Shown one piece after another: positions 2,141-32,000 of a DNA stretch of 32,000 bases. A model generated the notes under the pieces. That model was given only the letters and a program-made list of their open reading frames with translations, did not search any database and had not been told where the DNA came from. Origin of the DNA: Candidatus Saccharimonadota bacterium. GTDB lineage: Bacteria > Patescibacteriota > Gracilibacteria > Absconditabacterales > Absconditicoccaceae. The stretch is from NCBI GenBank assembly GCA_000503875.1, contig CP006913.1:240001-272000 (forward strand), given 5' to 3'. A program made the translations under genes and the position numbers. The number at the start of each line of letters is the position of its first letter. The first letter of the stretch is position 1.

Positions 2141-2743
2141 ATGAATAATACAGTAATATATGAAAATTCTTTTAGAACGGATAATTTAATTGTATACGGA
2201 AATTCTGAAGAACTGAAAAAAATATTGTTAGAATTAGAAAAATTGATGTATTGATATAATTATGAAATCAACTTAGGTTTTGTAAAATTACCCGAGTGTT
2301 CTACGATAGCTCTTTGTAAAGATAAGCTAGAAACTATCTTTGTAGCTCAAAATCCGCATAAAGTATGGAGTAATACTGAAGGAAAATATGATTTAGAAGA
2401 AGAAAACAAAGAAATAATTCCAGCTTCAATATGAGAATTTTGGAAAAAATTTGATAACGGATTCAACGATAGAGGAGAATTTAAACAAGGAGAAAGACCA
2501 TCAGTTAATGAAACAGAAGAAAGAGATTGATTGTTACTTAGTGAAGAAAACGAAAAAAAATTATATCAATTGGTAGATCAGTATAAAACAATTGTCTCTT
2601 CTTTTATCTCTCCAGCATCAGAAGTTTATCATTATTTAGGATACAATACTATTCCTTGATATGAAACTCGACGAGGATATAGAATGATAATTGTTAATAA
2701 AGATAGAGATAGTATATTTATTTATTGATCATGATCAGATTAG
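2141..2743 (+). CDS. Hypothetical protein (200 aa), invisible in the standard-code track
   Basis: ATG 2141 to TAG 2741-2743 is open if 7 in-frame TGA codons are read as sense, with no TAA/TAG. Also contains two consecutive CGA codons (YET-CGA-CGA-GY). No recognisable family. Confidence 0.6.
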
Positions 2744-2771: not shown

Positions 2772-4763
2772 ATGAAAAAAATATTCTTTTTATTAATAGC
2801 AAGTATATGCATATCACCAGCATTCGCAAGCGAATGGAATTTACCTGGTATTGAAATTATTTCTCGTAAAGATCGATGAGCTGATGAATCAATCAGATAT
2901 ACCAAAATGTCCTATGCAGAACGTAAAGCACGATTAAAATCCAAAACAGAAGAGGAAATGAAAACATTGGAAGAGACAGATTTTGATGAATTTTTTGAAA
3001 AACAAAAAGCAGAATATGAACAAACAATGAGAAATGATTATTTACAATCAAATTTTCCAGAAGAACAAAAAGTTAATGATGTGGTTTATCAACTGGGAAA
3101 GAATTATCTCAAATGGCCACAAAGTTATCATTATGAAAAAAATAAAATTATAGTCCATCATACAGCTGGCGATACTTCATCATTTACTGGAAAAGAAAGT
3201 GTAATAGCATATCTAAAAGATGTTTATAAATTTCATACTATTACGAGAGGTTGGTGAGATATTGGTTATAATTTTTTGATTGATTCATACGGAAATATTT
3301 ATGAAGGAAGAGCTGGTGGTGATAATGTTATTTGAGCACATACTAATTGGAATAATACCCCAAGTGTAGGAATTTCTTTGATGGGAAATTTTGATATTCA
3401 AAAACCAACTCAAGAACAAATCAAAAGTTTGATTTCTCTGATTACTGCATTGAGTAAAAAATACAATATAGATCCTACTGCAAAAGCTGAATATCATAAA
3501 GTACTTACAGATATTCCTTATATGAAATCAGTTGAAGCTGGAACCGTTGCAGGTCATAGAGATGCAGGAGTAACATCTTGTCCAGGGAAAAATTTATATT
3601 CACTTCTTCCTGAAATAAAAACAATGGTAGTGAATACTATGGCAAAAGGAGTTTTGGTTAGTTCTTCTGAAATAATGAAGAGTATTCCAACGGCAAAAAC
3701 CAGCAAAACAGCCACAAAAAATACAGCAAAAGGATTGGATAATTTAAAAAAACGACAAGCAGCATATGATAAAATTTCACTAGCTCTTCAAAATACCTAT
3801 ATCAAAAAACATGGTACAAAAAAAGCAACAGTTTCTTCCAATAAAATTGCTTTTAAAATAAATAAAGATGAAGCTAAAAAATTATTGGATTCTGATATTT
3901 CCGTGTTATTATATGAATTATCAACAGCATTTATGCAACGGGATATTTCTTGTTCATCTACTTGTTTTTTTGTTACTCCATCATGAACTTACAAAGGAAC
4001 TTCAGCCAATATAGAAGTAGCCGAAGGTGGTTTACTTTTGCAGGTGGGATGAGAAAAATATACGGAGGAATCTATTAAAATTCAAGCAAAAGGAAACGAT
4101 CTTATCGAAATAAAAAATTATCCAAGAGTTTCTTATTTTAAAATACCTTGGAATACTTTTTATGGAAGTCTAACTTTTGAAAAATGACAACTTAAAAATC
4201 TCAAAACAGGAAAATTTGAAAAACAATATACTATAGTTAATACCTTATCTTTCCATAAATATCTCAAAGGAATTGTAGAAACAAATGATTCTGAAGATGC
4301 TGAAAAAATCAAAACAATGAATTTGATTTCAAAAGGATATGCATTATTTTATAAAAACTCGAAAAACAAACATCCATCAATTCCTGATGGTGCAAAATAT
4401 ACTGCTATAGATAGTCCAGAAATGTTTCAAAAATATGTAGGAGCTGGAGTAGAAAAAACATTAAAGACAGTACCTGCATTAGTAGATGAACAAAAAACTG
4501 AAGTCATTTTTTATGATAATTATCTTCCTATTTTACCATATTTTAATTGTTCACCAGGATTTACTCGATCAGCAAAAGATAAACGAGGATGGTCAGATAC
4601 GCCATATCTAGTATCGAGAATTGATATGGAAAAATGTACTGATTTTAATGGACATGGAGTATGACTCAGTGGAAAAGGAGCTCAATATTTTGCTAAACAA
4701 GGATGGACATATAAAGAGATTTTAGAATACTACTATCCAGGAATACAAATTTTAACATTGTAA
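2772..4763 (+). CDS. Secreted peptidoglycan hydrolase fusion: N-acetylmuramoyl-L-alanine amidase (PGRP/Amidase_2) plus SpoIID/LytB domain
   Basis: Signal peptide MKKIFFLLIASICISPAFA. Amidase motifs are ISRKD-W(CGA)-G(TGA)-ADES, HHTAG, GW-G(TGA)-DIGYNFLID and GHRD...TSCPG. C-terminal GHGV-G(TGA)-LSGKGAQYFAKQGWTYKEILEYYYPG is the SpoIID signature. It joins tracked ORFs 2907, 3378 and 4317, all in one frame. Confidence 0.88.
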
Positions 4764-5784: not shown

Positions 5785-7851
5785 ATGCATGTTCTAGAAG
5801 AAAAGAAAATATATCAAGATACAGAAAGGTATATTGATACCCAACAACATTTACGTGATGGTATTCAATTTTCTTTGGTAGTAGAATTTCAATCAGAAAA
5901 ATTTGTAGAATATCAAAAAGATTTGCTTCAAGAATTTGTGGCAGATTTTGTAGATGGAATCACAGACACTGAAGAGCATGATAATGATGCAGTGAGAGCA
6001 AAATGTGAAACAGCACTTCAGGAATTAAATACAAAACTCAAAGCTTTTGCAGATAAAGTTCGTGATATAGAATATTTTCCTATCAAAGGATATATGCAAA
6101 TTATTCTTGGGACTACACTTATTTCTTCTATGATAGGAAATGCAACGGTTATGATTTTAAGAGATCGTAAAATTTATTATACGTTAACAAACTCTACAAA
6201 AGTAAAAGGAAAAATAGATTTGTTTTCTGAATTTATTGAAGGAGATTTAGAAAGTGGCGATGAGGTTATCTATATAGGAACAAGAATAACAGATGTTTTG
6301 GATGCATATGATGTAAAAGATATCGAACAAATCCTTCAATCAGAAGAATGAAGTATTATTGGATTTATGGATGAAGTATTAACATCAAGAATAGAAAAAG
6401 AAAATTTGGGATTTTTGATGGGATATACAATTCAATGAATGACAAGGAAATCACATATGAGCAAAAAAATATCACTAGATAATTTAACATCTAAATTTTG
6501 ATTTATTCAAGAATGGAAAGAAAAGTTTTTCAAAAATAAATATCAAGTAACTGTTGGTATACTCAGTCTATTTATAGCATTTATGCTCTATAGCTTAGTT
6601 ACCCAATTGCTCAAAAAACCACAAGGAGAAATATATATAAATCCTCAAGGAGTTACCGTTGATCTTACTATAGATGATATCAAAAAAGATATCGTATTGT
6701 TCAAATCTATGGATCCAACAGGTGATGAAAAAGCAATGAAATACCAGGAAATAGTTAATAAAATTACTATTTTAGAAAAAAGAGGAAGATGGATAGAAGA
6801 TCTTCAACAATTACAAAAAATTCTCAAAGCTGATTATTATAAAGGATTCAATATCATAACAGTAAATAATCTTTCTCAATTTGACGATCCAGTATTGGGA
6901 AGAAAAACAACATTGATGTCGTTCAATACAAGTGAAAAGTCTACACTCTGAGAATTAAGCAAAATAGAATATGCAAAAGATATTCTTATCGCATGATCAA
7001 AAGCAGCGTTGTTAGGTGTGGTCAACGAAAATAGTAGGGGATCATTAGTAAGTTATAATATTGATGATACAATAGAAAATTGTAGTTTAAATCTTTTGAG
7101 AAATGGGTTCTATTGTTATACTACAAACGGTAAAATTTACGTAATAGCTAGATCAGGAATAGAGTCAGTTACTACTGCAGATCCAGATGGATTTCCTATG
7201 TCAATATGAGGTATTGGAACGTATGGAAAATCAAATATGTATGTTTTTGCCAAAAATGTTACTAATTTAGCAGATAGTACATTGGTAGTAAGATACCGCA
7301 ATACATTATGATCTCAATCAATATACCAACAAGGACAAAAATATATGATGACTCCAGATGTAGCTACATGATTAAATTTTGGATCAGGATTTTCAACATT
7401 CACTATTGATGTAAATTTTCTATGATGGTCTCAGTGAAAGCTATATCAATTTCGAAGAAATCCAGCAACATCATTTAATCTAGCTTATCGTGAAATTAAA
7501 TTGTTGGGTGGTGATACAAAAACTATGAAATTATCTGATGATGTAAAAATCGTTACACCTTCAAATTCAAGATATGTATATTTGTTTGATAGAGTTAACC
7601 AAACATTTATGGTATACGAATCTCGTCCACTCAAAACAAATGATCAATATGCAACAAGTTATAATCTTTATTATTTGTTTAGTTTCGCTTTTGATCTAGG
7701 AAATAATAAAGTAGTAGATGTTACTATTCCAGATGAATTGTGAAATAGACCAGAATTATATGTATTGACTCAAGCTGGTATCAATAAAATTCAACTTCAT
7801 GAATTTGTTGATAGTATCAAAAACAATAACGTATTGAAACAAGTTAATTAA
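5785..7851 (+). CDS. Hypothetical single-pass membrane protein (688 aa)
   Basis: ATG 5785. One frame joins ORFs 5743, 6583, 7009 and 7501 through about 13 TGA codons, ending at TAA 7849-7851. A central TM segment (VTVGILSLFIAFMLYSLVTQLL) separates a roughly 230-aa N-terminal domain from a roughly 440-aa C-terminal domain. The N-terminal region faintly resembles a degenerate PP2C/SpoIIE fold (weak). Confidence 0.7.
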
Positions 7852-7983: not shown

Positions 7984-9564
7984 ATGAAAACAATATCTTC
8001 ACAAGAACTTAGAAATCTACGAAATACATTTTGGGAATCTAAACAACACAAATATCTTAGCGAAGTTTCTCTTATTGCGGATAAGGAAAGTACAGCGATG
8101 TTTAATGTGGCGGGGATGCAACAATTGATTCCATATCTTATGGGTAAACCTCATGATCTAGGAAAGAGAGTATTTAATATTCAAAGATGTATTAGAACTG
8201 TTGATATAGATGAAGTAGGGGATGCTTCGCACCTGACATTTTTTGAAATGATGGGAAATCGATCACTCGGAGATTATTTCAAAAAAGAAGCAGTAGAACG
8301 AAGCCGAGAGTTTTTGACGAGCAAAGATTATTTAGCGATAGATCCAAAAAAGCTTGCAGTAACCGTATTTCAAGGAGATGAACATACACCAAAAGATGAA
8401 GAGACAGCGTCATATTGGAAGAATGTAGGTATGACCGAAGATAAAATTTCATATTTACCAGCAAAACATAATCGATGGAGCCCAGGACCAGTTTGACCAT
8501 GTGGCCCAGATACAGAAATATTTTATCGAGTAGGTGCGGGAGATTTGCCCCCTGTAGGAAGCAATGTAGAAAACGATGAAGATAACTGGATGGAAATTTG
8601 GAATAATGTATTTATGGAATTTTATCGTGATGAATCAGGTACGCTTACCAAATTGAAACAACAAAACGTAGATACCGGAATGGGATTTGAAAGAATGTGT
8701 AAAACATTGCAAAACAAAGAAACAGTTTACGAAAGTGATTTGTTTCAACCAATTATTGATGCTATTGCGATTTATACAAAACTTGCTTACAAAGATTATC
8801 AAAGAAGAATGAGAATTGTGGCGGATCATCTTAGAACTGCAATAGTTCTTATCAATGATGGAGGTTTTCCATCCAATGTAGGAGCTGGATATGTACTTAG
8901 AATGATTATTAGAAGAATGTATTATAATTTGATTTTGCTCAACGATTCGGTTAGTGATGGCTATGAATCATTATTTGACGAAATTATTGCTTTTGTAGGA
9001 ACTCAACGCAAACTTACAAATTCTTCTGCGATTTTCAAAGTGATCAAAGATGAACTCGCTCAATTCAAAAAAACGATAGCAAACGGAAATAAATTATTGC
9101 AACAGATGATAGATAAACATCCAGCTCAACTAGCAGGTAAAGATATATTTATGCTCTACGATACCTATGGATTCCCTGTTGAGCTTACCAGAGAAATTGC
9201 CAGTGAAAAAGGAATCAAACTTGACGAAACCGGCTTCCAGAAATCACTAGAAGAAGCTCGCGAGAAATCTCGTCAATGAACCAAAGAGATGTTTAAGAAA
9301 GGAACTGATTGGTCAAAATATTTAGATGGAGTAAAACCAACCAAATTTATTGGTTATGATCAAACAAATTCAGAGTCTCAGAAACTTATCAAAGATTTTG
9401 AGGTAGACGGACAAAGAGTTTTAATCTTTGATCAAACGCCTTTCTATGCAGAATCCTGAGGTCAAACCTGAGACAAAGGAAAAATTATTTTAGATGATGG
9501 AACTGAAGTAGAAGTAATTGATGTAAAAAAATATGAAGGAGTGTTTTTGCACTTGGTGAAATAA
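7984..9564 (+). CDS. alaS: Alanine--tRNA ligase, C-terminally short form (526 aa; no editing or C-Ala domain)
   Basis: Motifs: FFEMMGN-W(CGA)-SLGDYFKK, AVE-CGA-S-W(CGA)-EFLT, HN-CGA-WSPGPV-G(TGA)-PCGPDTEIFY, VDTGMGFERM, ADHLR, TPFYAES-G(TGA)-GQT-G(TGA)-DKG. The frame ends at TAA 9562-9564, inside the beta-barrel that precedes the editing core, and is followed by a strong terminator. Confidence 0.9.
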
Positions 9565-9734: not shown

Positions 9735-11678
9735 ATGATCATGAAATTCTTTTCTAAATTTTCAATTTTTGGCTTGTTGGTTGTTTTTACTTTCTTTAGT
9801 TTTAGATTTGTCTCGGCCGCAACGACCCCATCTTTTGGTATGGCTGCGAGTTATGGTGTCCTTTCAAGTACGTACACCAATACATCAGTAACAACCATTA
9901 ATGGAGACGTAGGATTTACTACTGCACCAGCGGTTGCTCCATTGGGTATACATCCAAATTATTGAGTAGCTGCTCCCTATCCTCAAGCAGGTATAGATCA
10001 AGCTACTGCTTTAGTAGCATTATCAGCGCCTGCTCAACCATGTACATTTACATTTCCAGCTGGGGCAATAAATCTTGCTACAGATGTTACTCACGGAACC
10101 ATTTGAATATATGAACCTGGTGTATATTGTAGTTTGGGTGCAATGACAGTTGGTTGACCAATTAATCTCGACGGTGCAGGAACATATATTTTCAGATCAT
10201 TTCCAGCCGCACTTAACACGACAGTAGGTTCAGTTATTTCATTGAGCAACGGTGCATCAGCTTGTGATGTTTTTTGGATTTCAACAAATACAACACTTGC
10301 TGCAACCACAACATTTGTAGGAACAGTTATAGATAATTCTTTTATCACTGTGGGTGCAAATACTACGTGGTTGGGAAGAGCTTTATCATTTGGTTGAACA
10401 GTTACTACAGATACAGACACCATTACTGTACCAAATTGTGCCCCAGCTACCTTACATATTGTCAAACAAGTAATAAACGATAATGGAGGACTAGCAATTG
10501 CAAACGCATTCAATCTTCATGTTAGACGTGCAGGAATTGATGTTGTGGGAAGTCCAGCATTGGGAGCTGGATTACCAGGAACTTCATATACATTAAATCC
10601 AGGAACCTATGTAATAAGTGAAGATGCAAATCCAGCTTATGCACAAAGTTTTGCATGAGATTGTAATATATGAGGAAGTATTACGCTTGCTCCAGGTGAT
10701 GATAGAACATGTACAGTAACTAATAATGATATAGCAACACCATCAGGTGGTGGAGGATGATGAGTAACATTTCCAATAGATACTTGTCCAAATTGAGATG
10801 ATTCGCCAAGTTACTATGATTGAATATGTGTTTTATCTCCAACGATAGTCCATTCTTGAGTTGTTGTTCCTTTAATTGGTATTACAAAAGTACCAAGTCC
10901 ATTAGCTTTACCAGCATGATCAGGTTCAGTTATTTACAATTATACTGTTTGGAATGTAGGAGGAAAAATAGCACTAACTAATATTACTTTAAAAGACGAT
11001 AAATGTACTTCAATAAAATTTATTTCAGGTGATACAAATAATAATAAAAAAATTGATATAAACGAAAAATGGAAATATACATGTACAACAAACCTTTTGA
11101 AAACTACTACAAATACAGCAATTGCAAAAGGATATAGCGATGATAGTTATAATCAAGTATCTGTTGCTACCGCAATCGCAACAGTTGTTGTTGGCGCAGA
11201 TTTACCAGCACCACTTATTGATATTGTAAAAATACCTAGTCGTTTAACTCCATTTCCATTTGGAGGGGGAGATGTTGATTATACATATATTGTAACGAAT
11301 CCAGGTATTGTTTATATAAGTGATGTTACGGTTACCGATAATAAATGTAATCCAGTTTCTATTATTTGAGGAGATAACAATCGTAATCATCTTCTTGATG
11401 TTGATGAAACATGGACATACACGTGCAAAACAAAAGTTTCTGTTTCAACAAGAAATATCGCTACAGCAAAGGGTATTGCAAATTGATTTGCGGCTGTAGA
11501 TTATGCTTTTGCTGACGTACTTGTTTTTGTTCCTGGATTTCCAAAAACATGAGCAACAATTTATCAAAATCATACATTTAGAAATATATTAATAGTGTTT
11601 GGTATTCTATTAATTTCGACAGGATTTATGGTGATATCTAAAAGACGTAATATTCAATCAAACGATTTATCAAAATAG
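9735..11678 (+). CDS. Sortase-anchored surface protein: DUF3494 (ice-binding-like) domain, prealbumin/Cna-B-like domain, 2x DUF11-type repeats, FPKTG sorting signal
   Basis: Signal peptide MIMKFFSKFSIFGLLVVFTFFSFRFVSA. AASYGVLSSTYTNTSVTTINGDVGFTTAP is the DUF3494 N-terminal signature. ATLHIVKQVINDNGG...PGTYVISE...CTVTNND is the prealbumin-like fold. The C-terminus is FPKT-G(TGA 11550-11552), then a hydrophobic stretch, then KRR. About 17 in-frame TGA codons; TAG at 11676-11678. Confidence 0.82.
10860..11525 (+). repeat. Two tandem DUF11-like domain repeats inside the adhesin (protein level)
   Basis: Repeat 1 is ITKVPSP..GSVIYNYTVWNVGG..LTNITLKDDKCTSIKFISGDTNNNKKIDINEKWKYTCTT. Repeat 2 is IVKIPSR..GDVDYTYIVTNPG..ISDVTVTDNKCNPVSIIGGDNNRNHLLDVDETWTYTCKT. 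Confidence 0.75.
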
Positions 11679-11685
11679 TAATACG

Positions 11686-12303
11686 ATGAAACAAAAAATC
11701 TGATCAAGATATATATTGTTTTTCTTTAGTACTATGGGGTTTTTCTTACTTTCAATAATAGTTTCTTTTTGGGATTTTGACAATGATGAAATACAAAATG
11801 AATCTAAAGAATTTCCAATAGTACAACAAATTCCAAAGGAAGTACCAGAAATTTTGGTAAGAAATCCAAATGAAATTCGTTTGGAAATTCCCAGTATCTA
11901 CGTTGATGCTGCTGTTATATCTGTTGGATTGACAAAAGATGGCATAATGGATTCTCCAAATAATGGAGATGATGTTTGATTATTTACATTAGGGAAACGT
12001 CCTGGTGAAAATTGAACCGCTGTTATAGCTGGGCATTATTGAATATGGAAAGATGGAACGATATCTGTTTTTCATGATATTAATACATTAAAAAAATGAG
12101 ATAAACTTCATATAGGAGACGGAAAATGATGAAGCGTATCTTTTGTTGTTCGTGAAAGTAAAATATATGACCCAAATGAAGGTGTTTCAGAAGTATTCTT
12201 ATCAAATGATGGGAAATCACACCTCAACCTTATTACTTGTATCTTAGATAAAAAAACAAAACAATATTCTAAGCGTTTAGTCGTATTTACTGACAAAATA
12301 TAA
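11686..12303 (+). CDS. Sortase (class E/F-like transpeptidase)
   Basis: N-terminal TM segment. Motifs: PGEN-G-TAVIAGH (catalytic His), HLNLITC (catalytic Cys), KRLVVF (Arg). Starts 8 nt after the FPKTG protein. Six or more in-frame TGA codons. Confidence 0.85.
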
Positions 12304-12641: not shown

Positions 12642-13835
12642 TTATTCTAAAGCTTTGAGTAAATCTTCTTTTTTATCATCTCGATTGTTTTCTAAAATTT
12701 TAGGGACTGGTATTTTATCTAATCATAAATCTTCTTCATAAAGATAATGTTTGAAATTTTCTGCATTTATACATCCAGTAATATTTTGTCGCATCCACAA
12801 TTCTTCACTTCATTGTCAAAATCAGATTTTTCCTTCTTCTTTTTGTCAAAATTCTTTAAACTGTTCTATGAGTTTATTTTGTGTGTCTTTTGATCGTCAT
12901 AATGCATTGCCTTTACTTTCTACTTGATGAGTAAAATTTTCTAAAGTAAGACTGTAAATTGAAATATGTTGTAAATATTCAGGACGAAAAATTTCTGGTA
13001 AATCAAAATTAAATTCAAATCCATAAAAAATATAAGGCAAAACCCATTCTATTATAGTAAAAGCTTTTTCTGTATCTAATTTTTTGATGTTTTTATTTAA
13101 GGCAGCTATTACTCAGTCTTGAAGTCTTTTTAAATCGATCTTACTAGATGTTGCACTATAAAAAGCAATCAGCATAGCTTCATTATTTCGATTCCAACCG
13201 CCAACTAAATCAGCAAGAATTGCGTCTATGTTAAGAGAGTTATCTTCATTAACATATTTTTTTGCAGATTCCTGATAATTGTTTTTAACTGTTTCTATAT
13301 ACTTACCTCGTTCTTGTTCTTCCCAAGTTAATCCTTTTTTACATACATTATTAATCGTTGTTATAATATTTGTTGTATCGATATTTACTTCTATGCTGTG
13401 AGCATTTTCTATTTCTTCAAGTAAAGATTTAAGCTCAATGTAGAAATCTTTTTCATATACTTCAGAATTTTTATTTCAAAGAAAGTACATCTCTTCAAAT
13501 TGTTTAATTAATTTAATTAAAGATGATTTAAGTATATATTTTAATTCTGATTTTGGTACTTCTGACAAAAAAGAAATAATTTCATCTATATATTTAAGAT
13601 AAGAAAATCTTTTATTGATTGTAGATAAACGTGAGAAAATGAATTTATCTAGATCAAAATTTCCATCATCATTGACTATATTATTTCGGTTAATTGCTTT
13701 TGGATAATGTGCTCTACATTTTTGATCAAATATCTTATTCCAATTTATTTGTCTTCCTAGTTTTCCATAAGGGAAAATTTCTTTTTGATCAAAAATAATT
13801 TCTTTTTTTTCTAAAGGTGAAGGAAAATTATTCAT
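12642..13835 (-). CDS. Hypothetical protein (397 aa), upstream of and co-oriented with the MazG-like gene
   Basis: Extends tracked ORF 13476..13835 through TGA codons to TAA at 12642-12644 with no TAA/TAG. Contains about 6 CGA codons. No recognisable domain, signal peptide or TM segment. Confidence 0.65.
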
Positions 13836-13837
13836 AA

Positions 13838-13869
13838 GAAAAAATGTTAAGAATAAATCAATATTCTTA
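13838..13869 (-). terminator. Putative terminator after the DUF333 gene
   Basis: 8-bp hairpin taagaata/tattctta (13848-13869). On the minus strand it is followed by TTTTTT, 3 nt before the ATG of the next gene. Confidence 0.45.
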
Positions 13870-13893
13870 TATATAAATATATAAAAAAGTCAA
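13866..13893 (-). promoter_or_regulatory. Putative promoter for the 397-aa gene
   Basis: Minus strand: TTGACT (13893-13888), 16 nt, TATAAG (13871-13866). Overlaps the terminator hairpin arm. Confidence 0.3.
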
Positions 13894-13912
13894 TAGATGT
13901 TATTGATAAAAA

Positions 13913-14389
13913 TTATTCAGCTTCTCCATTTCCTGCGCTTGGATTTGGATCGTAAGGATTTGGACATTCACCATCAAGATTTGCTTGTGCATTACAAAGT
14001 GTTCCATCAATTCTTTTACACATAGGGGTATCAGTTCCAACTCCTTCTACTTCACCACCAGTAATTGCACAATATATTTCTGCGTCATTTTCATATCCAG
14101 TAACTTTCATTCCTCCAATAGGACAATCCCCACGTAAGAAAGCCCATTCTTCACATTGACGATTATCTTCAAAAAGACAAACGCCATATTCGCCCTTTTT
14201 ATTTTTTCTTGTTTCTAGTATTCCTCATTTTTCAAGACAATTTGTTGAAGCTGGATTTGCTATACCAGTTTGTTCTTGTAGGGGTGTGTTTTTAATTTCG
14301 AAATTAAACCAATCGGTTTTTGTATTAACAAATTTTAAACTGGCTAATACAATAATGGTAATAATTACTGTCCAGAAAGTTTTTTTCAT
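13913..14389 (-). CDS. DUF333-domain (putative hemolysin-like) secreted or anchored protein
   Basis: MKKTFWTVIITIIVLASL signal/anchor. NPASTNCLEK-G(TGA)-GILETRKNKKGEYGVCLFEDNRQCEEWAFLRGDCP is the DUF333 signature. A Cys-rich acidic tail follows. Extends tracked ORF 13913..14110. Confidence 0.72.
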
Positions 14390-21827: not shown

Positions 21828-23573
21828 ATGAAAAACAATTTAAAGCACCATTTCCAACAACATATTTTGTATAATCATGTATTTCACCTAGTATTAGGTG
21901 TGCTTTTTGGAATTTGACTTATTCTTCGTGTACTTCAAGGAAGCGCGCAAGAGACAAACTCGTTTTTCCCATTTAATTCATTTATTATACAACATAACAA
22001 CTCAACAAATATTCATTTTCAATATGGAGGAAATAATTTAACATGAATTTTGGCCTGGTCATGATTGATAACATTGGCAACGCCAGAAACAATTTATCTT
22101 ACAGGAACATCATCTAGCGCAACATGTTCAAAACAATTAGAATGATTATATTATAATGCAATTAGATGATCAAAGCTTTGGCCTTTAGATCAAAATAGTC
22201 TTCAAAAATTAAAAGAACTCGATGGTTCTTATAGTAATATGGTTGTTGTAGGATGATTATATACCAATTGTACAGGAACAAATATACAAAGCAATTTTGT
22301 GATTGGACAAGTAACGCATACTAACTTAGGATTGAAATACGAATTGTTTGCAGGAATGCGTTATAATCTTACTGACAACAATATGAATATAACACAAGAT
22401 TTATATTGAGGAACATTGACCTTTCAAGATAATAAATTTCAAGGAAGAATTTTTGATATATATGGTGGTGGAATAGGTGATTTATCAAATCAAACGCTTC
22501 CTGGGACTATTTCTTTGTGAGGATTCTCAGGTGCTGTATTTTTTCCAGGAATTAGTAGCGTGCTTAATGCAGAGCCAAAAAAATTATATACATCAAATAC
22601 CTTTAGTGTAGCAGGGCTTACATGAAGAACATTAATTTCTATTTCAAGTGGAGCATTACTCTATATTAACGGTTCTTGAGTAGGGACAACAGGAATGATA
22701 AATAATAATGATCCATTAAAAATAGAAATGTTTGCTAGTGATGAATATGATAAAACAATAAATTCATCTATACAAATTGGTTCTTTATCATGATTTTTTA
22801 CAATAACCACAAAACCTAAACAACCTGATGTATGTATACTCAGTACAGAAGAGAAAAAGAGTATTACTGAAGTATTTTCAGGATTGATAGCACAATACGG
22901 GGAAACAGCTAAGTTAAATACACTTATGGGTACTATGGAAAGTATGATTAAAGATATGCAAGATTTTAATTATGATTGTAATTTAGCATATTTAAAAACA
23001 TTGGTAGAAAATTATTTGAAAGATAAAGAAGGAGATACAGATACTATGCATATTGCACCGAACTGTAAAAAATATACGGTTGTTTATAATGAAGAAAAGA
23101 AAGGATATACTTCATCAAATTTGAAGGTTAAGCAGTATTTTGCAACACGTGAAAGTTTAATTAGATTTATTGATAGTAAAAATCCAGGTGATTGCCATGT
23201 AGTCGCTTATGATAGTGATAATGAAGAATATAAGGAATTAGACGATAATATGTATATAGCACCAAATGGAAAAGTTTATGAAATTGGTGAAACAGCTGGA
23301 ATATTTAGTTCTCCAACCATGGCTAACAAAAAAGAATTTTCTTCTAAAGATGCTCTCTTATATTATATTGATAGAAATAATCCTGTAATCGAAGTATGGG
23401 ATCATGAAGTAGATACGGATCGAGAACCAATAATTTATGCAGCAACAAATAGTAAAGAATACAAAATCTACAAAACCGACAAATGATTTATGTCGTATAA
23501 ACTGGTAAAAATAAAATATTTTTCAACGCAAGAAGAAATTATTGCTTATATTGAGAAGAACAACAAAAAATAA
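21828..23573 (+). CDS. Hypothetical membrane-anchored protein (581 aa) with three C-terminal repeats
   Basis: ATG 21828. N-terminal TM segment VFHLVLGVLFGI-G-LILRVL. About 14 in-frame TGA codons before it joins tracked ORF 22884; one more TGA, then TAA at 23571-23573. No TAA/TAG inside. Confidence 0.7.
23046..23564 (+). repeat. Three ~45-aa protein repeats
   Basis: MHIAPNCKKYTVVYNEEKKGYTSSNLKVKQYFATRESLIRFIDSKNP / MYIAPNGKVYEIGETAGIFSSPTMANKKEFSSKDALLYYIDRNNP / IIYAATNSKEYKIYKTDKGFMSYKLVKIKYFSTQEEIIAYIEKNN. Confidence 0.65.
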
Positions 23574-27897: not shown

Positions 27898-27910
27898 AAA
27901 ATAATATTCA

Positions 27911-27950
27911 AAAAAATAAAAAAACGTATGCACTATAACATACGTTTTTT
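27911..27950 (-). terminator. Rho-independent (bidirectional-looking) terminator after the pilin-fusion gene
   Basis: 10-bp stem aaaacgtatg/catacgtttt with A/T runs on both sides. Confidence 0.75.
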
Positions 27951-27973
27951 CTAGGTAAAATCAATTGAAAATA

Positions 27974-30058
27974 TTAGTTGATAATCAAGAAGTTGGTAAC
28001 AATATATCCGGTTCCTATAACTATAATTCCAATGAAGATATATAATAAACTATTTTTGATTTTTTTCATAGCATCTGGACTATCTGGTTTGAGTAATAAT
28101 TGGAATGCTTGAACTAAAACCATAATGAGAATTACCAATGCAGCCAATCCCATTGCCCAGTTAATAATTTCATACAAGATAGGTAGATTTTTGTTTGCCA
28201 AAAGTCCAGATCCAATTTCTCATAGGTTACTAACTGCTTTTACTACGTCTTGCTGTTTTCCATAAATAAACTCAATAACTTGTTTTGCTCAAATAATAAT
28301 AAACATACCAAGTACATTCCAAGCAATAATAGTTCCTGCTTTTTTCTTGGCATCTTCATCAGTTCCAAAGACAAATGTTAATGCACGAGAGGCCAATAAA
28401 ACAAATAATACGCCAAGTGCTAAATAAATAGCCAATTTAATAAAAGGGAATGCAATTTTTTCATATATTTTTTGTGCTATTTCATATCATTGTAATTCTC
28501 CATAACCTATATTTCCAGTAAGAAAAATATCATTATAAAGTGTTGTTGAAATAAATTTTGCACTCATAATAACGATAATTCCCAATACTCAATAAACAAT
28601 ATAATTAGTACCTTCACTAATAGCTTTTTCATCACTAGAAAATAAAATTTTATAGAACCCCAAAAGAGAAATCAGAATTCCAATAGTTATAATAAGAGGA
28701 ACTAATACATCCATAATTTTTTTTAGTAAAAAATCTTTTACTGCATCTGCACCAGGTGTAGCACTTACATCACTTAAAATTTCTGGTGCATCAAGATTGT
28801 TTTTGATACTATCAATTGCTCTATTCATTGCGATATCAAATCTTTCTGCTTTGATGATAGCTACTGTTCATAATCGAGTGTTATTACTAACAACAGTTTC
28901 TTGATCTCGTTTCTTTAATTCACACGAAACTTTTTTGTCACCCAAAGATTGAGTAAATATATCTTTTAGAATTACAGTTTGTTTGAGTGATGTTCCAGGA
29001 TTAAGAGTAAATTGGACTAGTTTTTTAGATTGATAAATAACGAGTTTTTGTCCGTTATCCATATGCCAATAACAAGTTAATAATCCAGCGGGAACATTTG
29101 CTTTATTTACAAGATTAGTTCCTCGATTTTTTATAAGAACATCAAGGGATGGACTAGAATATTGTGCAAAACTAAGTAATCATCAAGGGAATTTTACTTC
29201 AAGTCTAAGGTCAACCCCAGTGACAAGTCATCAAGTAACCTTACATCCTAAATATTTAAACACATTTCGATTGCCAACAATTGCTCAATTATTACAAGAA
29301 AGTGTAGTAGAACTTTGAGCACAAGTTTTTGGAAACAATACTTCTTGTGCAGAATATGCAGTAATTCCAGAACCGTGAAGGATCGGAACACCTCCTATAT
29401 TACAATCAGCAGGAAGTCAGTCTAAACAAGTATCATATGGATATTGATTAAAATCACCAATAAATGTTCCATTGGTACAAGAAAACATAGATCATATGTT
29501 TACACATTTTTTTGGATAGATACTAGTCATAGTAGAATAATAAATTTTTGACCATCAATGAGGATAATCTGTATTATTTACTGTACATATTTTAAATCAA
29601 AGATCGGTACATCATTCATATATTGCATCTGGATTTCCTCATTCCCATATTCCATCTGTACAAGTTAGAATAACCTTTATTTGTTCACATGTTTGGGTAT
29701 TTGTTGACGTTGTAGATGTGTAACCAACCAAAGAATTTCTATTGGCTACAAATTGTTCTAGCCAAGGATGAATACATTCATTATCTCTTCTTTCGCGACA
29801 AGTTTCATAAGGATAATCATCGATATCATAACTATTTGGACTTATAAATTCTCAATTTTTACATTGAAAATTTGATAATGTTTCTATACATGTTTTATCA
29901 TATGTAGATACATCTATTTTATAAAATCCTGTATAATCCAAATGATTAACAAAATTTCATGAAGGGGTTTCACAAGGTTCTGTTTCTTGTGCAAATGTAA
30001 TAAAAGAAAATGTAGATAAGACTACGGTTAATAAAATGGAGTACATAAAGCGTTTCAT
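27974..30058 (-). CDS. Secreted Cys-rich ectodomain protein fused to three VirB2/TrbC (T4SS pilin)-like membrane hairpin modules
   Basis: ATG at 30058. Signal peptide MKRFMYSILLTVVLSTFSFITFA, four Cys-patterned repeats, an Ig/CARDB-like segment, then six TM helices arranged as three pilin-like hairpins. In frame with tracked ORFs 28868, 28589 and 27974. About 20 TGA codons; TAA at 27974-27976. Confidence 0.75.
27977..28730 (-). repeat. Three tandem pilin-like (TM-loop-TM) modules (protein level)
   Basis: IMDVLVPLIITIGILISLLGFYKILFSSDEKAISEGTNYIVYGVLGIIVIMSAKFI / IAFPFIKLAIYLALGVLFVLLASRALTFVFGTDEDAKKKAGTIIAWNVLGMFIIIGAKQVI / IINWAMGLAALVILIMVLVQAFQLLLKPDSPDAMKKIKNSLLYIFIGIIVIGTGYIV. Confidence 0.6.
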
Positions 30059-31065
30059 TATGATTTTTTTGAAGTAAAAGGTTTGATAATGGTAGTAATA
30101 AGAAGTACAAGTTCTCTCATTAATGGCAATGCAGGACTACGTCCCCATATCCAAAGCATAACACTATATCTTACCAAAACAAGAAGTACAGTAAGAATAG
30201 CTAGTCATGAAATATGTCAGAGGTCTACTTGCCAAAGAAGGATAATAATACAAATCAATAATAATCAATATTGTCGCTGAATGCTTCCAAATTTTTTGAT
30301 ATCATAGAGATATTGATATTCGTTTTTTATATTTTCAACTAAGAGTTTCCAATATGGACGATTGTAATTTCCGTGAAAAAGAAACACAATACTTCACCAT
30401 ACATATCACCAAATTTCTTCTGGATTTTTGTAAAATAAAGAAGAAACAAATTCTGATATAGATTTGGGTATAATATCGATATTTCCAAGTAAAGTTACTA
30501 TTCTTACGAGTATTACTATTCCTATAAATACAGCAAAAAATGGTGTTGGAGCAAGACATGATATACCAAATAAGATCCATAGAATAAGAGATTCTTTTAT
30601 TAAGATATCAGGTGTATCAAAACTATGTTTCATATATCGAAGATAAACAGAATATCCAGGTAAATATGCTAAAAAAGAATGTGCTTTATCAAGATTAGTA
30701 TATTCAGTGAATTCACTTTTGTTCGACAATGATGTTTTCTTTATTATTTTGATTTCTGTTATTGCTCAAATACATCCAATACCCAAAAGAGCAACCAAAA
30801 TACCAACAATAACTTGATAAATTATAGTAAGAATATCTATTGTATAAAAATAAGAAAACAGACCACTCAATAATGCTAATCCTACCAAAATAAGATTGAT
30901 CCATCCCAAAGAAATATATCCTTGAACAAAAAGACGATCTTGTTCGTTTAATTCGAGACTGTCTCCCTTAAGTAAATGGGTAATAAACGGAGAAAAAAAC
31001 ATCAAAGAAGCCAGACTTAATTGAATTTTTAATGATTGATTATTTGCTTTTTCCTCAATATTCAT
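30058..31065 (-). CDS. Polytopic membrane protein (335 aa), candidate VirB6/TrbL-type channel component
   Basis: Tracked ORFs 30766..31065 and 30406..30729 share one frame and are joined by a single TGA (30763-30765). The frame continues through 5 more TGA codons to TAA 30058-30060, which overlaps the next ATG (TAATG). There are 7-8 hydrophobic segments. Confidence 0.65.
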
Positions 31066-31100
31066 AAGATATATATATTCTAAGTGCTAAAAGCTAAGAG

Positions 31101-32000
31101 CTATTTTACATCAGTAGTAATAAATTCTTTCTCTGTTGGAGAAGCCAATACTTTGACCCCTACGTGCTGTTGCCCCGCAAAAATGAGCCCTTCTCCAACT
31201 CCACAAGATACCAACCTTCTTTGCTCTGCCTCAGAGAGTCCAAGCAGATCATTGAGCGCTTTGATAGAAGTGGTAGATTGTTTAAGCAATATTTGAAGAG
31301 ACGAGTTAGAAAGAATAGGTTTTCCATACTTACTTCTTACGAAGTCTTCAATATCTTGAGAGATGGTAGTAATTCCAAGTCCATATTTTCTGGCTCTTTT
31401 GATAAGTCCAAATAAGAATTCTGCAGAAGTTTCATGTTGAAGCATAATCCAGGCTTCATCACAGATAAGTAATCTTTTCTTTTTCTGTGATCTTACTTTG
31501 GTCCAGATAAAGTTCAAAACGTTAAACATCGCAGGTGTTTTTAATACTTCTTCAAGATCTCTAATACTAAAAACGGTCATTGCATTGTTGATATCTACGT
31601 TAGTATAGTTATTGAAAAGTTTTCCAAAGGTTCCAGTAACATATTTACTAAGTTTAAGCGCTATTTTTTCTCCACCATCCATACCATCCAAAACATTCAT
31701 CAAATCTTCCATCAATGGTGGTTGTTTGCCTTCATATGACATAGCTTCCAAAGAAAATCCTTTTAAGCTATAGGTACTTTGAATTGCTTTATCCAGAAGA
31801 GCTTCTTCTTCAGTACTTAAATCTCCAATCAATAATTTCACTAATCCAATAAGTGCCATAATCTGACTTCTCAAAAGATCTCCTTTCCCGTAATCAACAT
31901 CACTAATTTGTGGAGGAATATCAAATGGATTAATAAATTGTTGTGAACTTGTAGCAATATTTACATAGGTACCACCTACTTTTTGAGCAAGCGTTTTGTA
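31101..32000 (-). CDS. VirB4/TrbE/TraC-like type IV secretion ATPase (C-terminal part; continues past window end)
   Basis: FINPFDIPP, KKKRLLICDEAWIML (Walker B DEAW), ARKYGLGITTISQDIEDF, LSEAEQRRL. Open to position 32000; TAG at 31101-31103. Confidence 0.85.
   Translation of the reverse strand, partial: YKTLAQKVGGTYVNIATSSQQFINPFDIPPQISDVDYGKGDLLRSQIMALIGLVKLLIGDLSTEEEALLDKAIQSTYSLKGFSLEAMSYEGKQPPLMEDLMNVLDGMDGGEKIALKLSKYVTGTFGKLFNNYTNVDINNAMTVFSIRDLEEVLKTPAMFNVLNFIWTKVRSQKKKRLLICDEAWIMLQHETSAEFLFGLIKRARKYGLGITTISQDIEDFVRSKYGKPILSNSSLQILLKQSTTSIKALNDLLGLSEAEQRRLVSCGVGEGLIFAGQQHVGVKVLASPTEKEFITTDVK

Follow-up and report, generated by a model that had tools for sequence, protein, structure and literature searches.

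The window analysed here is a stretch of 32,000 nt from contig CP006913.1 (GCA_000503875.1, positions 240,001 to 272,000, forward strand). The last part of the window carries three consecutive minus-strand genes, and their identification as an SR1 variant of the known Patescibacteria type IV secretion system (T4SS) is well supported. The genes encode a VirB4 ATPase (gene A, virB4), a polytopic membrane protein (gene B), and a secreted protein in which a large ectodomain is fused to three pilin modules (gene C; Table 1). The start ATG of gene C overlaps the TAA stop of gene B (TAATG at 30058); with this overlap and a shared terminator, the trio is one tightly coupled unit. The product of gene B has a 100% identical counterpart in candidate division SR1 bacterium RAAC1_SR1_1, and the organism is SR1 (Absconditabacteria). 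An earlier note, made by a model from the letters of the window, had guessed at a candidate phyla radiation (CPR) bacterium, which agrees with an SR1 organism using genetic code 25. The idea of a relaxase-less chromosomal T4SS is not new and has already been published for Patescibacteria (PMC12102498; PMC10633639). What is new is the SR1 layout, the fused tri-pilin with its fast-evolving ectodomain, the gene B family, and a caution about annotation under alternative codes.

The reading of the locus depends on the genetic code. Under the standard code (code 11), the trio region yielded only fragments of 50-107 aa and a 257-aa piece of the ATPase, and genes B and C were split into short open reading frames (ORFs); both were intact in code 25, in which TGA encodes glycine. 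Long-ORF coverage of the window rose from 19.3 to 46.8 kb once TGA was read as sense. In prfA, which encodes release factor 1 (RF1), the invariant GGQ motif is spelled G-TGA-Q, and a second site (RPAA-TGA-GDEA) likewise requires glycine, indicating that the genome uses code 25. TGA codons occur 18 times in gene C and 6 times in gene B. The database protein P0139 differed from the product of gene C solely by tryptophan in place of glycine, exactly at the 18 TGA positions, and is a code-4 mistranslation of gene C itself. Homologues of C carried either glycine or their own mistranslated tryptophan in those 18 columns. Together, P0139 and the homologue columns confirm both the recoding and the single long ORF of gene C, which is therefore not a chance frame. 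Read in code 25, the coordinates, sizes, and minus-strand orientation that the earlier note had given for gene C, gene B, and the ATPase were all exact, as was the TAATG overlap; its dependence on an alternative code had been left unstated.

The same problem is visible in the databases. The deposited annotation of GCA_003543185.1 uses table 11 despite a code-25 genome, with fragmented genes (virB4, for example, as 192, 60, and 350 aa), and many metagenome-derived database copies of B and C were translated with code 4, with tryptophan where glycine belongs. Surveys of deposited proteins can therefore miss or distort code-25 T4SS genes. Deposited proteins were used in a recent survey of Patescibacteria T4SSs, the text of which does not mention the genetic code; GCA_003543185.1 was not listed in its text-form supplementary tables (PMC12102498). 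The annotation problem may contribute to T4SS components being reported as "absent" in Gracilibacteria.

Gene A encodes, by its profile matches and motifs, a true VirB4 ATPase. The gene is cut by the end of the window, and the region upstream of position 32000 was read on locus L001 (contig DPJE01000002.1 of GCA_003543185.1). This contig carries P0001, a 350-aa piece of the ATPase as annotated under table 11, which matches the window at 100% identity; the upstream 10 kb was re-annotated in code 25. The full 679-aa protein passed the NCBIfam model NF045971 conju_CD1110 (366.3 bits, cut-off 325) and Pfam P-loop_TraG (94.9 bits, cut-off 25.8, 5.6e-27), and scored below the cut-offs of TIGR00929 VirB4_CagE (114 bits) and TraC (212 bits). 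The Walker B motif in the window reads LLICDEAW, and D561-E562-A563-W564 was invariant among 20 homologues, bearing out the earlier description of a VirB4/TrbE-type ATPase with a DEAW Walker B motif; the Walker A residues of GAGKS (G353, K354, S355) were invariant or nearly so in the same set. Identity was 59-72% within the ATPase's own clade and 40-47% to other Patescibacteria classes, and the best plasmid-borne relatives were VirB4s of Bacillus, Streptomyces, and Clostridium (Firmicutes and Actinobacteria; 28-34% identity). The best curated model for the SR1 VirB4 is an MPF-FATA one, and by identities and model scores the protein may group with the Patescibacteria VirB4s nested in MPF-FATA.

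The product of gene C, which the earlier note had described as a secreted protein with pilin-like modules, has a signal peptide and three VirB2-like pilin modules. It matched the Pfam family T4SS_pilin (PF18895) at 48.4 bits against a gathering cut-off of 26.6 (1e-12) over two stretches, the best being residues 627-690, and a hidden Markov model (HMM) of the module found all three. HHalign of the modules against single-module pilins from outside SR1 gave three separate matches with probabilities of 93%, 75%, and 70%. The modules also matched one another (blastp, module 1 versus module 2, 3e-7; another pair, 1e-4). A weak Pfam TrbC match covered residues 436-506, NCBIfam Mbov_0395, a pilin-like family, scored 24 bits with module 3, below its threshold of 40, and one homologue of C is already labelled "pilin" by NCBI. 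The AlphaFold2 (AF2) model of C, which was built on the code-4 proxy P0139 and so has 18 glycines modelled as tryptophan, placed hairpin helices at residues 431-469/473-509, 520-560/564-596, and 621-652/657-689; hydropathy likewise indicated two-helix TM hairpins. The hairpin loops are rich in lysine and the linkers are acidic, which fits an N-out topology with the ectodomain and linkers external. C has 694 aa, three modules, and some 400 aa of ectodomain, which sets it apart from a small single-module pilin (about 70-150 aa), and we found no description of fused multi-module T4SS pilins in the literature.

The ectodomain consists of two parts. The first, N-terminal part contains four disulfide-rich repeats; every repeat has four Cys and the motif C-x8-C-x-[ND]-G, giving 16 Cys in the repeats and 16+2 in the whole ectodomain. 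Close homologues were 63-78% identical over this part. In the AF2 model this region was beta-rich, with a predicted local distance difference test (pLDDT) score of about 78-88. The repeats matched no Pfam family, and a Foldseek search with the C model returned nothing for the repeats or the hairpins. For the second part, an Ig-like domain, Foldseek returned only generic Ig/FnIII/ML/arrestin-like sandwiches (E 1e-4 to 1e-3, about 130-150 columns). Among close homologues the ectodomain was 62-78% identical, versus 80-95% for the pilin modules (88-95% for module 3); the linker between them was 80-95% identical, with R406, F407, D408, and A410 invariant, and the number of ectodomain repeats varied.

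Gene B, described earlier as a 335-aa polytopic membrane protein and confirmed here with about 6 transmembrane (TM) segments, belongs to a clade-specific orphan family and is a new element of this locus. Profile searches with 1, 8, or 79 diverse members found no match in Pfam, NCBIfam, or PDB sequences. The family comprises 214 representatives at 50% identity and has conserved motifs, and B lies immediately downstream of virB4 in at least ten loci (L002-L006, L008, L010, L083, L084/85, and L088). Some distant members are unlinked to virB4 (L082 743-1783 and, in L086/87, L086 4451-5458; two lineages) and have as neighbours either AhpC and NUDIX genes or PolX and UDG/MutS genes. Several identities were tried for B and rejected. 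Pfam, NCBIfam, PDB-sequence profiles, and HHalign gave no support for a divergent VirB6, VirB3, or CedA; HHalign against the PrgI-like proteins of other Patescibacteria loci reached only 0.3% probability, and the Pfam PrgI hit of a single family member had E = 0.37 only. HHalign likewise showed no relation to the pilin hairpins, and a comparison among the three hairpin segments of B was empty, leaving no sign of an internal triplication. The role proposed for B is therefore argued solely from its adjacency and topology. VirB6 follows virB4 in Tn916 and ICEBs1, and gene B occupies the equivalent place.

Conservation of the locus was assessed in a scan of GTDB species representatives that yielded 80 virB4 loci. 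All of the nine closest (L002-L010) use code 25. A homologue of C was found downstream of virB4 in eight of these nine, with B between them in seven of the eight. The C homologues range from 311 to 957 aa and always end in three pilin modules, the difference in length lying wholly in the ectodomain. The trio was present in the same order in at least ten related code-25 loci, L002-L006, L008, L010, L083, and L084/85 among them; it was partial in L009, without B, and in L088, without the tri-pilin. The flanks are also kept, with priA upstream in several loci and secG, an SBP gene, M50, and prfA downstream; in L083 the order is virB4-B-C-secG-SBP-M50-prfA, as in the window. The gene order and housekeeping flanks persist across genomes with 59-72% identity in VirB4 and as little as 35% in B.

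Other Patescibacteria classes are arranged differently: genes for a PrgI-like 2-TM protein and for a TrsD-sized product come directly before virB4, which encodes about 600 aa, and single-TM proteins and separate pilin genes come after it. The PrgI/VirB3-like and TrsD-like genes were absent upstream of virB4 in L001-L010. Some loci of the Peribacteria and Peregrinibacteria type (L036, L047, and L051), which use the standard code, carry 1+2+1 arrays of pilin modules as separate or two-module genes, suggesting that C resembles a pilin array that has become fused. In other classes, a single T4SS_pilin hairpin is joined to a large C-terminal extracellular domain (L074 13431-14408, L067 10095-11864, and L060 9053-10333); the domain in L074 is SLT_3 lysozyme-like, making that protein a pilin-VirB1-like fusion. 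In BD1-5-type Gracilibacteria (L045, L049, L050, L059, and L064), a membrane-anchored SpoIIE/PP2C-type phosphatase of about 400 aa is encoded directly upstream (about 1.2 kb) of virB4. These 3-TM genes had been considered as pilin fusions and were rejected as such, being SpoIIE phosphatases (Pfam SpoIIE 8e-43 for L049); their position hints at phospho-regulation of the BD1-5 T4SS.

The trio lies in a chromosomal context without mobile-element genes. In L001, virB4 is preceded, in order, by a divergent 109-aa ORF, priA (C-terminal part), a 136-aa ORF, and a UPF0020 RNA methylase, and further upstream by trmB, atpD, a lipoprotein gene, atpG, and atpC. Within about 42 kb around virB4 (the window plus 9 kb upstream, in code 25), no relaxase, type IV coupling protein (T4CP), or integrase was found, and only housekeeping and envelope genes were present. 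The absence that the earlier note had reported for its part of the sequence thus held and was extended 9 kb upstream, where the full virB4 is preceded by housekeeping genes and not by an ordinary integrative and conjugative element (ICE). The strong terminator that it had placed at 27911-27950 was also recovered, as a 14-bp stem (27951-27918, minus strand) followed by a T-run, with a dG of -15.6 kcal/mol and z = -4.2; 0/200 shuffles were as good. Beyond it, 3' of gene C, lies secG. The GC content of the trio (0.28-0.34) matches its surroundings, and the window contained no tRNAs or Rfam families.

Table 1. Features of the virB4-B-C unit, in window coordinates
Feature	Position	Strand	Basis or remark
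virB4, 3' part (C-terminal 299 codons + stop)	31101..32000	-	cut by window end
virB4, whole gene, 679 aa	to window-equivalent 33140 (= L001 9014-11053)	-	L001 re-annotation
virB4-B spacer, 35 nt	31066..31100	-	sequence read; 1-80 nt in relatives
Gene B, 335-aa polytopic membrane protein, ~6 TM as three hairpins	30058..31065	-	code-25 ORF
Gene C, 694 aa	27974-30058	-	code-25 ORF
Gene C signal peptide, aa 1-23, MKRFMYSILLTVVLSTFSFITFA, then QE	29990..30058	-	sequence
Ectodomain part 1, four ~62-aa 4-Cys repeats	29234..29989	-	Cys map, motif positions
Ectodomain part 2, Ig-like beta-sandwich, aa 276-400	28859..29233	-	AF2 pLDDT 80-88, Foldseek
Conserved juxtamembrane linker + helix, aa 401-440 (RFDIAMNR...)	28739..28858	-	homologue identity
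Pilin module 1, aa 441-510, VirB2-like two-helix TM hairpin	28529..28738	-	module HMM 1.1e-13, HHalign 75%
Pilin module 2, aa 511-600	28259..28528	-	module HMM 1.5e-14, HHalign 70%
Pilin module 3, aa 601-694 + stop	27974..28258	-	PF18895 1e-12; most conserved module
Intrinsic terminator of the three-gene unit, upstream of secG	27908..27951	-	fold + shuffles

The closest known systems are the T4SSs of other Patescibacteria. A VirB4 clade nested within MPF-FATA is present in most Patescibacteria; its clusters are chromosomal and without relaxases, and VirB2-like pilins (PF18895/PF04956) are encoded near virB4, frequently as arrays of 2-11 genes (Quinonero-Coronel et al. 2025; PMC12102498). In Gracilibacteria, TrsD and VirB3 were reported to be unlinked to virB4 (PMC12102498). 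Southlakia epibionticum requires its T4SS and pilin genes (SEML1_0006-0019) to grow as an epibiont, and neither a coupling protein nor a relaxase was recognised in that cluster (Wang et al. 2023; PMC10633639); a 2025 review also highlights the Patescibacteria T4SSs (PMC12857230). The SR1 locus shares with these systems a VirB4 of probable MPF-FATA ancestry, a chromosomal location, the lack of a relaxase or T4CP at the locus, PF18895 pilins by virB4, a monoderm envelope, and a presumed role in the epibiotic lifestyle. It differs in lacking the upstream PrgI/VirB3-like and TrsD-like genes, in a VirB4 of about 680 rather than about 600 aa, in its orphan 6-TM gene downstream, and in a pilin array that is fused behind a large ectodomain.

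The MPF-FATA conjugation systems (CTn2/CD1110, Tn916, ICEBs1, and pCF10) are related through the ATPase, which passes the CD1110 equivalog threshold. Unlike them, the SR1 locus has no nearby relaxase, T4CP, VirB8-like gene, cell-wall hydrolase, or integrase, and it does have VirB2-like pilins, which to our knowledge the MPF-FATA systems of monoderms generally lack. VirB2/TrbC/TraA pilins and tandem virB2 arrays (Bartonella, Anaplasma, and Saccharimonadia) are likewise signal-peptide-dependent, N-out two-helix hairpins in several divergent copies per locus; in SR1, by contrast, the copies are covalently joined, three per chain, behind about 400 aa of Cys-rich and Ig-like domains. Two-module fusions are found in the Peribacteria- and Peregrinibacteria-type loci, and single hairpins with C-terminal domains in other classes. 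The Mycoplasma ICE module resembles the SR1 locus in combining VirB4 with a pilin-like two-TM protein, in a wall-less or monoderm lineage, and in a reassigned TGA. Both Mycoplasma models stayed below threshold (Mbov_0397 VirB4, 264 bits, cut-off 590; Mbov_0395, 24 bits, cut-off 40), and the Mbov_0397 and Mbov_0395 genes belong to true ICEs.

The best explanation overall, which we regard as probable with some reserve, is that VirB4, acting on a membrane platform including B, assembles or operates the tri-pilin C for contact with a host or prey cell, and not for plasmid transfer. The mechanism is proposed from family knowledge, gene linkage, and topology. Once its signal peptide has been cleaved, C would be embedded in the membrane, exposing the ectodomain and the linkers between modules to the outside and the Lys-rich loops to the inside. 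B would form, or contribute to, the membrane platform or channel that is supplied elsewhere by VirB6 and VirB3. In characterised systems VirB4 extracts and assembles VirB2; here, a VirB4 hexamer would dock on the platform, and ATP would drive extraction of the pilin hairpins and their assembly into a surface filament or conduit. The fast-evolving ectodomain would then give the apparatus an adhesin of its own, or an element for recognising the host, in contact with the host or prey cell, and the apparatus may serve an epibiotic or predatory lifestyle by attachment and macromolecule exchange rather than plasmid transfer. The earlier suggestion of a chromosomal, non-conjugative apparatus is thus supported by the confirmed VirB4 and the lack of a relaxase, T4CP, and integrase, while its extension to host interaction or DNA uptake is a step that we still infer.

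Several results weigh against this explanation. B showed no detectable similarity to VirB6, TrbL, PrgH, PrgI, or CedA, and its AF2 model was poor (pLDDT 58.8, predicted template modelling score 0.36); a Foldseek search of PDB with this low-confidence model gave nothing at E <= 0.001, only noise. Distant members of the B family lie away from virB4, and the family is not exclusively T4SS-linked. On the side of C, the hairpins reached a pLDDT of only 55-65, the pilin-module profile had no match to solved pilins among PDB sequences, and a covalent hairpin trimer with a 400-aa ectodomain may be unable to polymerise as VirB2 does. Parts such as a T4CP, TrsD, PrgI, or a VirB8-like protein may lie elsewhere in the genome, and the three genes are not claimed to be the whole machine. 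Finally, a role of the SR1 T4SS in any host contact is something we infer.

The main rivals concern mechanism, not identity. In one, which we consider unlikely though worth weighing, C itself would be the membrane channel, a 6-TM pore resembling an "extended VirB6" with a large external domain, and B would be an accessory or assembly factor. The three hairpins of C give exactly 6 TM segments, and these are conserved clade-wide. A VirB6-like C would also account for the VirB6 homologues reported absent in Gracilibacteria (PMC12102498), and VirB6 proteins extended by large hydrophilic domains have been described (PMC12857230). However, all three modules match the PF18895 profile and the single-module pilins of other classes, and in the standard-code relatives with 1+2+1 arrays these modules are encoded by separate or two-module genes; moreover, C had no match to the VirB6 or TrbL models of Pfam and NCBIfam.

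We give rather less credence to a second possibility, in which C would be a covalently triplicated VirB2 with an adhesin domain, either building a filament of three-hairpin protomers or standing as a living intermediate between VirB2 and VirB6, and forming with B and VirB4 a three-protein minimal bacterial T4SS. We know of no described pilus in which three-hairpin protomers display a host-recognition domain.

Lower again we place the proposal that the trio is a DNA-import machine like Ced/Ted, which would draw nucleotides or genes from imported host DNA. The Ced/Ted importers consist of VirB4, a 6-7-TM protein, and a pilin, without a relaxase or T4CP, and the N-terminus of their 6-7-TM pore is reported to be homologous to pilin (PMC9905601). 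As a minimal, domesticated, chromosomal T4SS derivative with VirB4, a protein of about 6-7 TM, VirB2-like pilin modules, and no relaxase or T4CP, the SR1 locus has the same composition, and weak CedB and CedD matches (42 and 27 bits) were recorded. The CedB score is nevertheless far from the cut-off of 700 of NF041017, compared with 366 bits for CD1110; B had no match in NCBIfam, in which the presence of a CedA model was not confirmed; and the SR1 version differs in its bacterial host and in the triple fusion of pilins with an ectodomain. In Southlakia, the T4SS is essential whereas DNA uptake through comEC is dispensable, and its authors prefer a role in protein export or some other function (PMC12857230; PMC10633639). 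Nothing in our data bears on the direction of transport or the substrate.

Two further alternatives are effectively excluded. A decaying remnant of an integrated conjugative element is very improbable: the ATPase passes a model of conjugative elements and module 3 weakly matches the Mycoplasma ICE pilin-like family, but the three ORFs are intact, the conserved order and flanks described above span divergent genomes, no integrase, relaxase, T4CP, tRNA, or flanking repeat signature accompanies the trio, and its GC content is that of its surroundings. That the ATPase is a non-T4SS translocase of the FtsK/HerA type with unrelated neighbours deserves almost no credence, as the HMM scores refute it: Pfam DUF87 (the HerA central domain) matches at 6e-12, a match common to all VirB4 proteins, whereas NCBIfam HerA gave 19 bits against a cut-off of 970, no FtsK model was among the matches listed, VirB4-family models scored 114-366 bits, and the adjacent gene encodes T4SS pilin domains.

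Several other features of the region were recorded. The priA-like ORF upstream of virB4 (L001 7421-8485) has about 354 aa and matches only the C-terminal domain of PriA; the same short form precedes virB4 in L002, L004-L006, and L010, and to judge from its sequence PriA is either truncated or interrupted by a frameshift or by a problem with the start site. Genes elsewhere in the window are nusB, holB, one for an amidase/SpoIID protein, wecG, alaS, those for an ice-binding-like surface protein and a sortase, tpiA, an aldehyde dehydrogenase gene, fusA, prfA, and those for an M50 peptidase, an SBP-like protein, and several proteins without a family. The amidase gene, 2772-4763(+), lies about 25 kb from virB4 and encodes a 663-aa secreted protein with Amidase_2 (N-acetylmuramoyl-L-alanine amidase) and SpoIID-like domains; this cell-wall hydrolase could in principle attack host walls or have a VirB1-like role. 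The 647-aa surface protein encoded at 9735-12303(+) has Ice_binding-like, SpaA-like prealbumin-fold, and DUF7507 domains and is followed directly by the sortase gene. Its C-terminus, with FPKTG, a hydrophobic stretch, and a KRR tail, resembles a sorting signal, and the protein is a probable sortase-anchored adhesin or pilus subunit. The alanyl-tRNA synthetase ORF at 7984-9564(+) has only 526 aa, with the class II catalytic domain (tRNA-synt_2c) and apparently without the usual editing and C-terminal domains. Four ORFs had no Pfam family: 5785-7851(+), 688 aa; 12642-13967(-), 441 aa; 21828-23573(+), 581 aa; and 2141-2743(+), 200 aa. Two of them have N-terminal hydrophobic segments, and all are typical CPR "dark" proteins. 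Between 16000 and 18000 (tpiA and aldehyde dehydrogenase), GC content rises to about 0.40, compared with 0.25-0.34 elsewhere, which could reflect strong conservation or foreign origin.

In the sole genetically tractable lineage of Patescibacteria, the T4SS is indispensable to epibiotic growth. At the locus level, the SR1 version appears unusually small, its three products being an ATPase, an orphan membrane protein, and a pilin fusion; this makes it attractive as a minimal system in which to study structure and the role of relaxase-less T4SSs. The tri-pilin bears on the proposed evolutionary link between the VirB2 pilin and the VirB6 channel: if C were an intermediate between them, it would directly support the origin of one from the other by duplication, and if C is a triplicated pilin in either form, the trio would define a three-protein minimal bacterial T4SS. 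Its rapidly diverging ectodomain suggests a way in which host specificity could be built into the apparatus.

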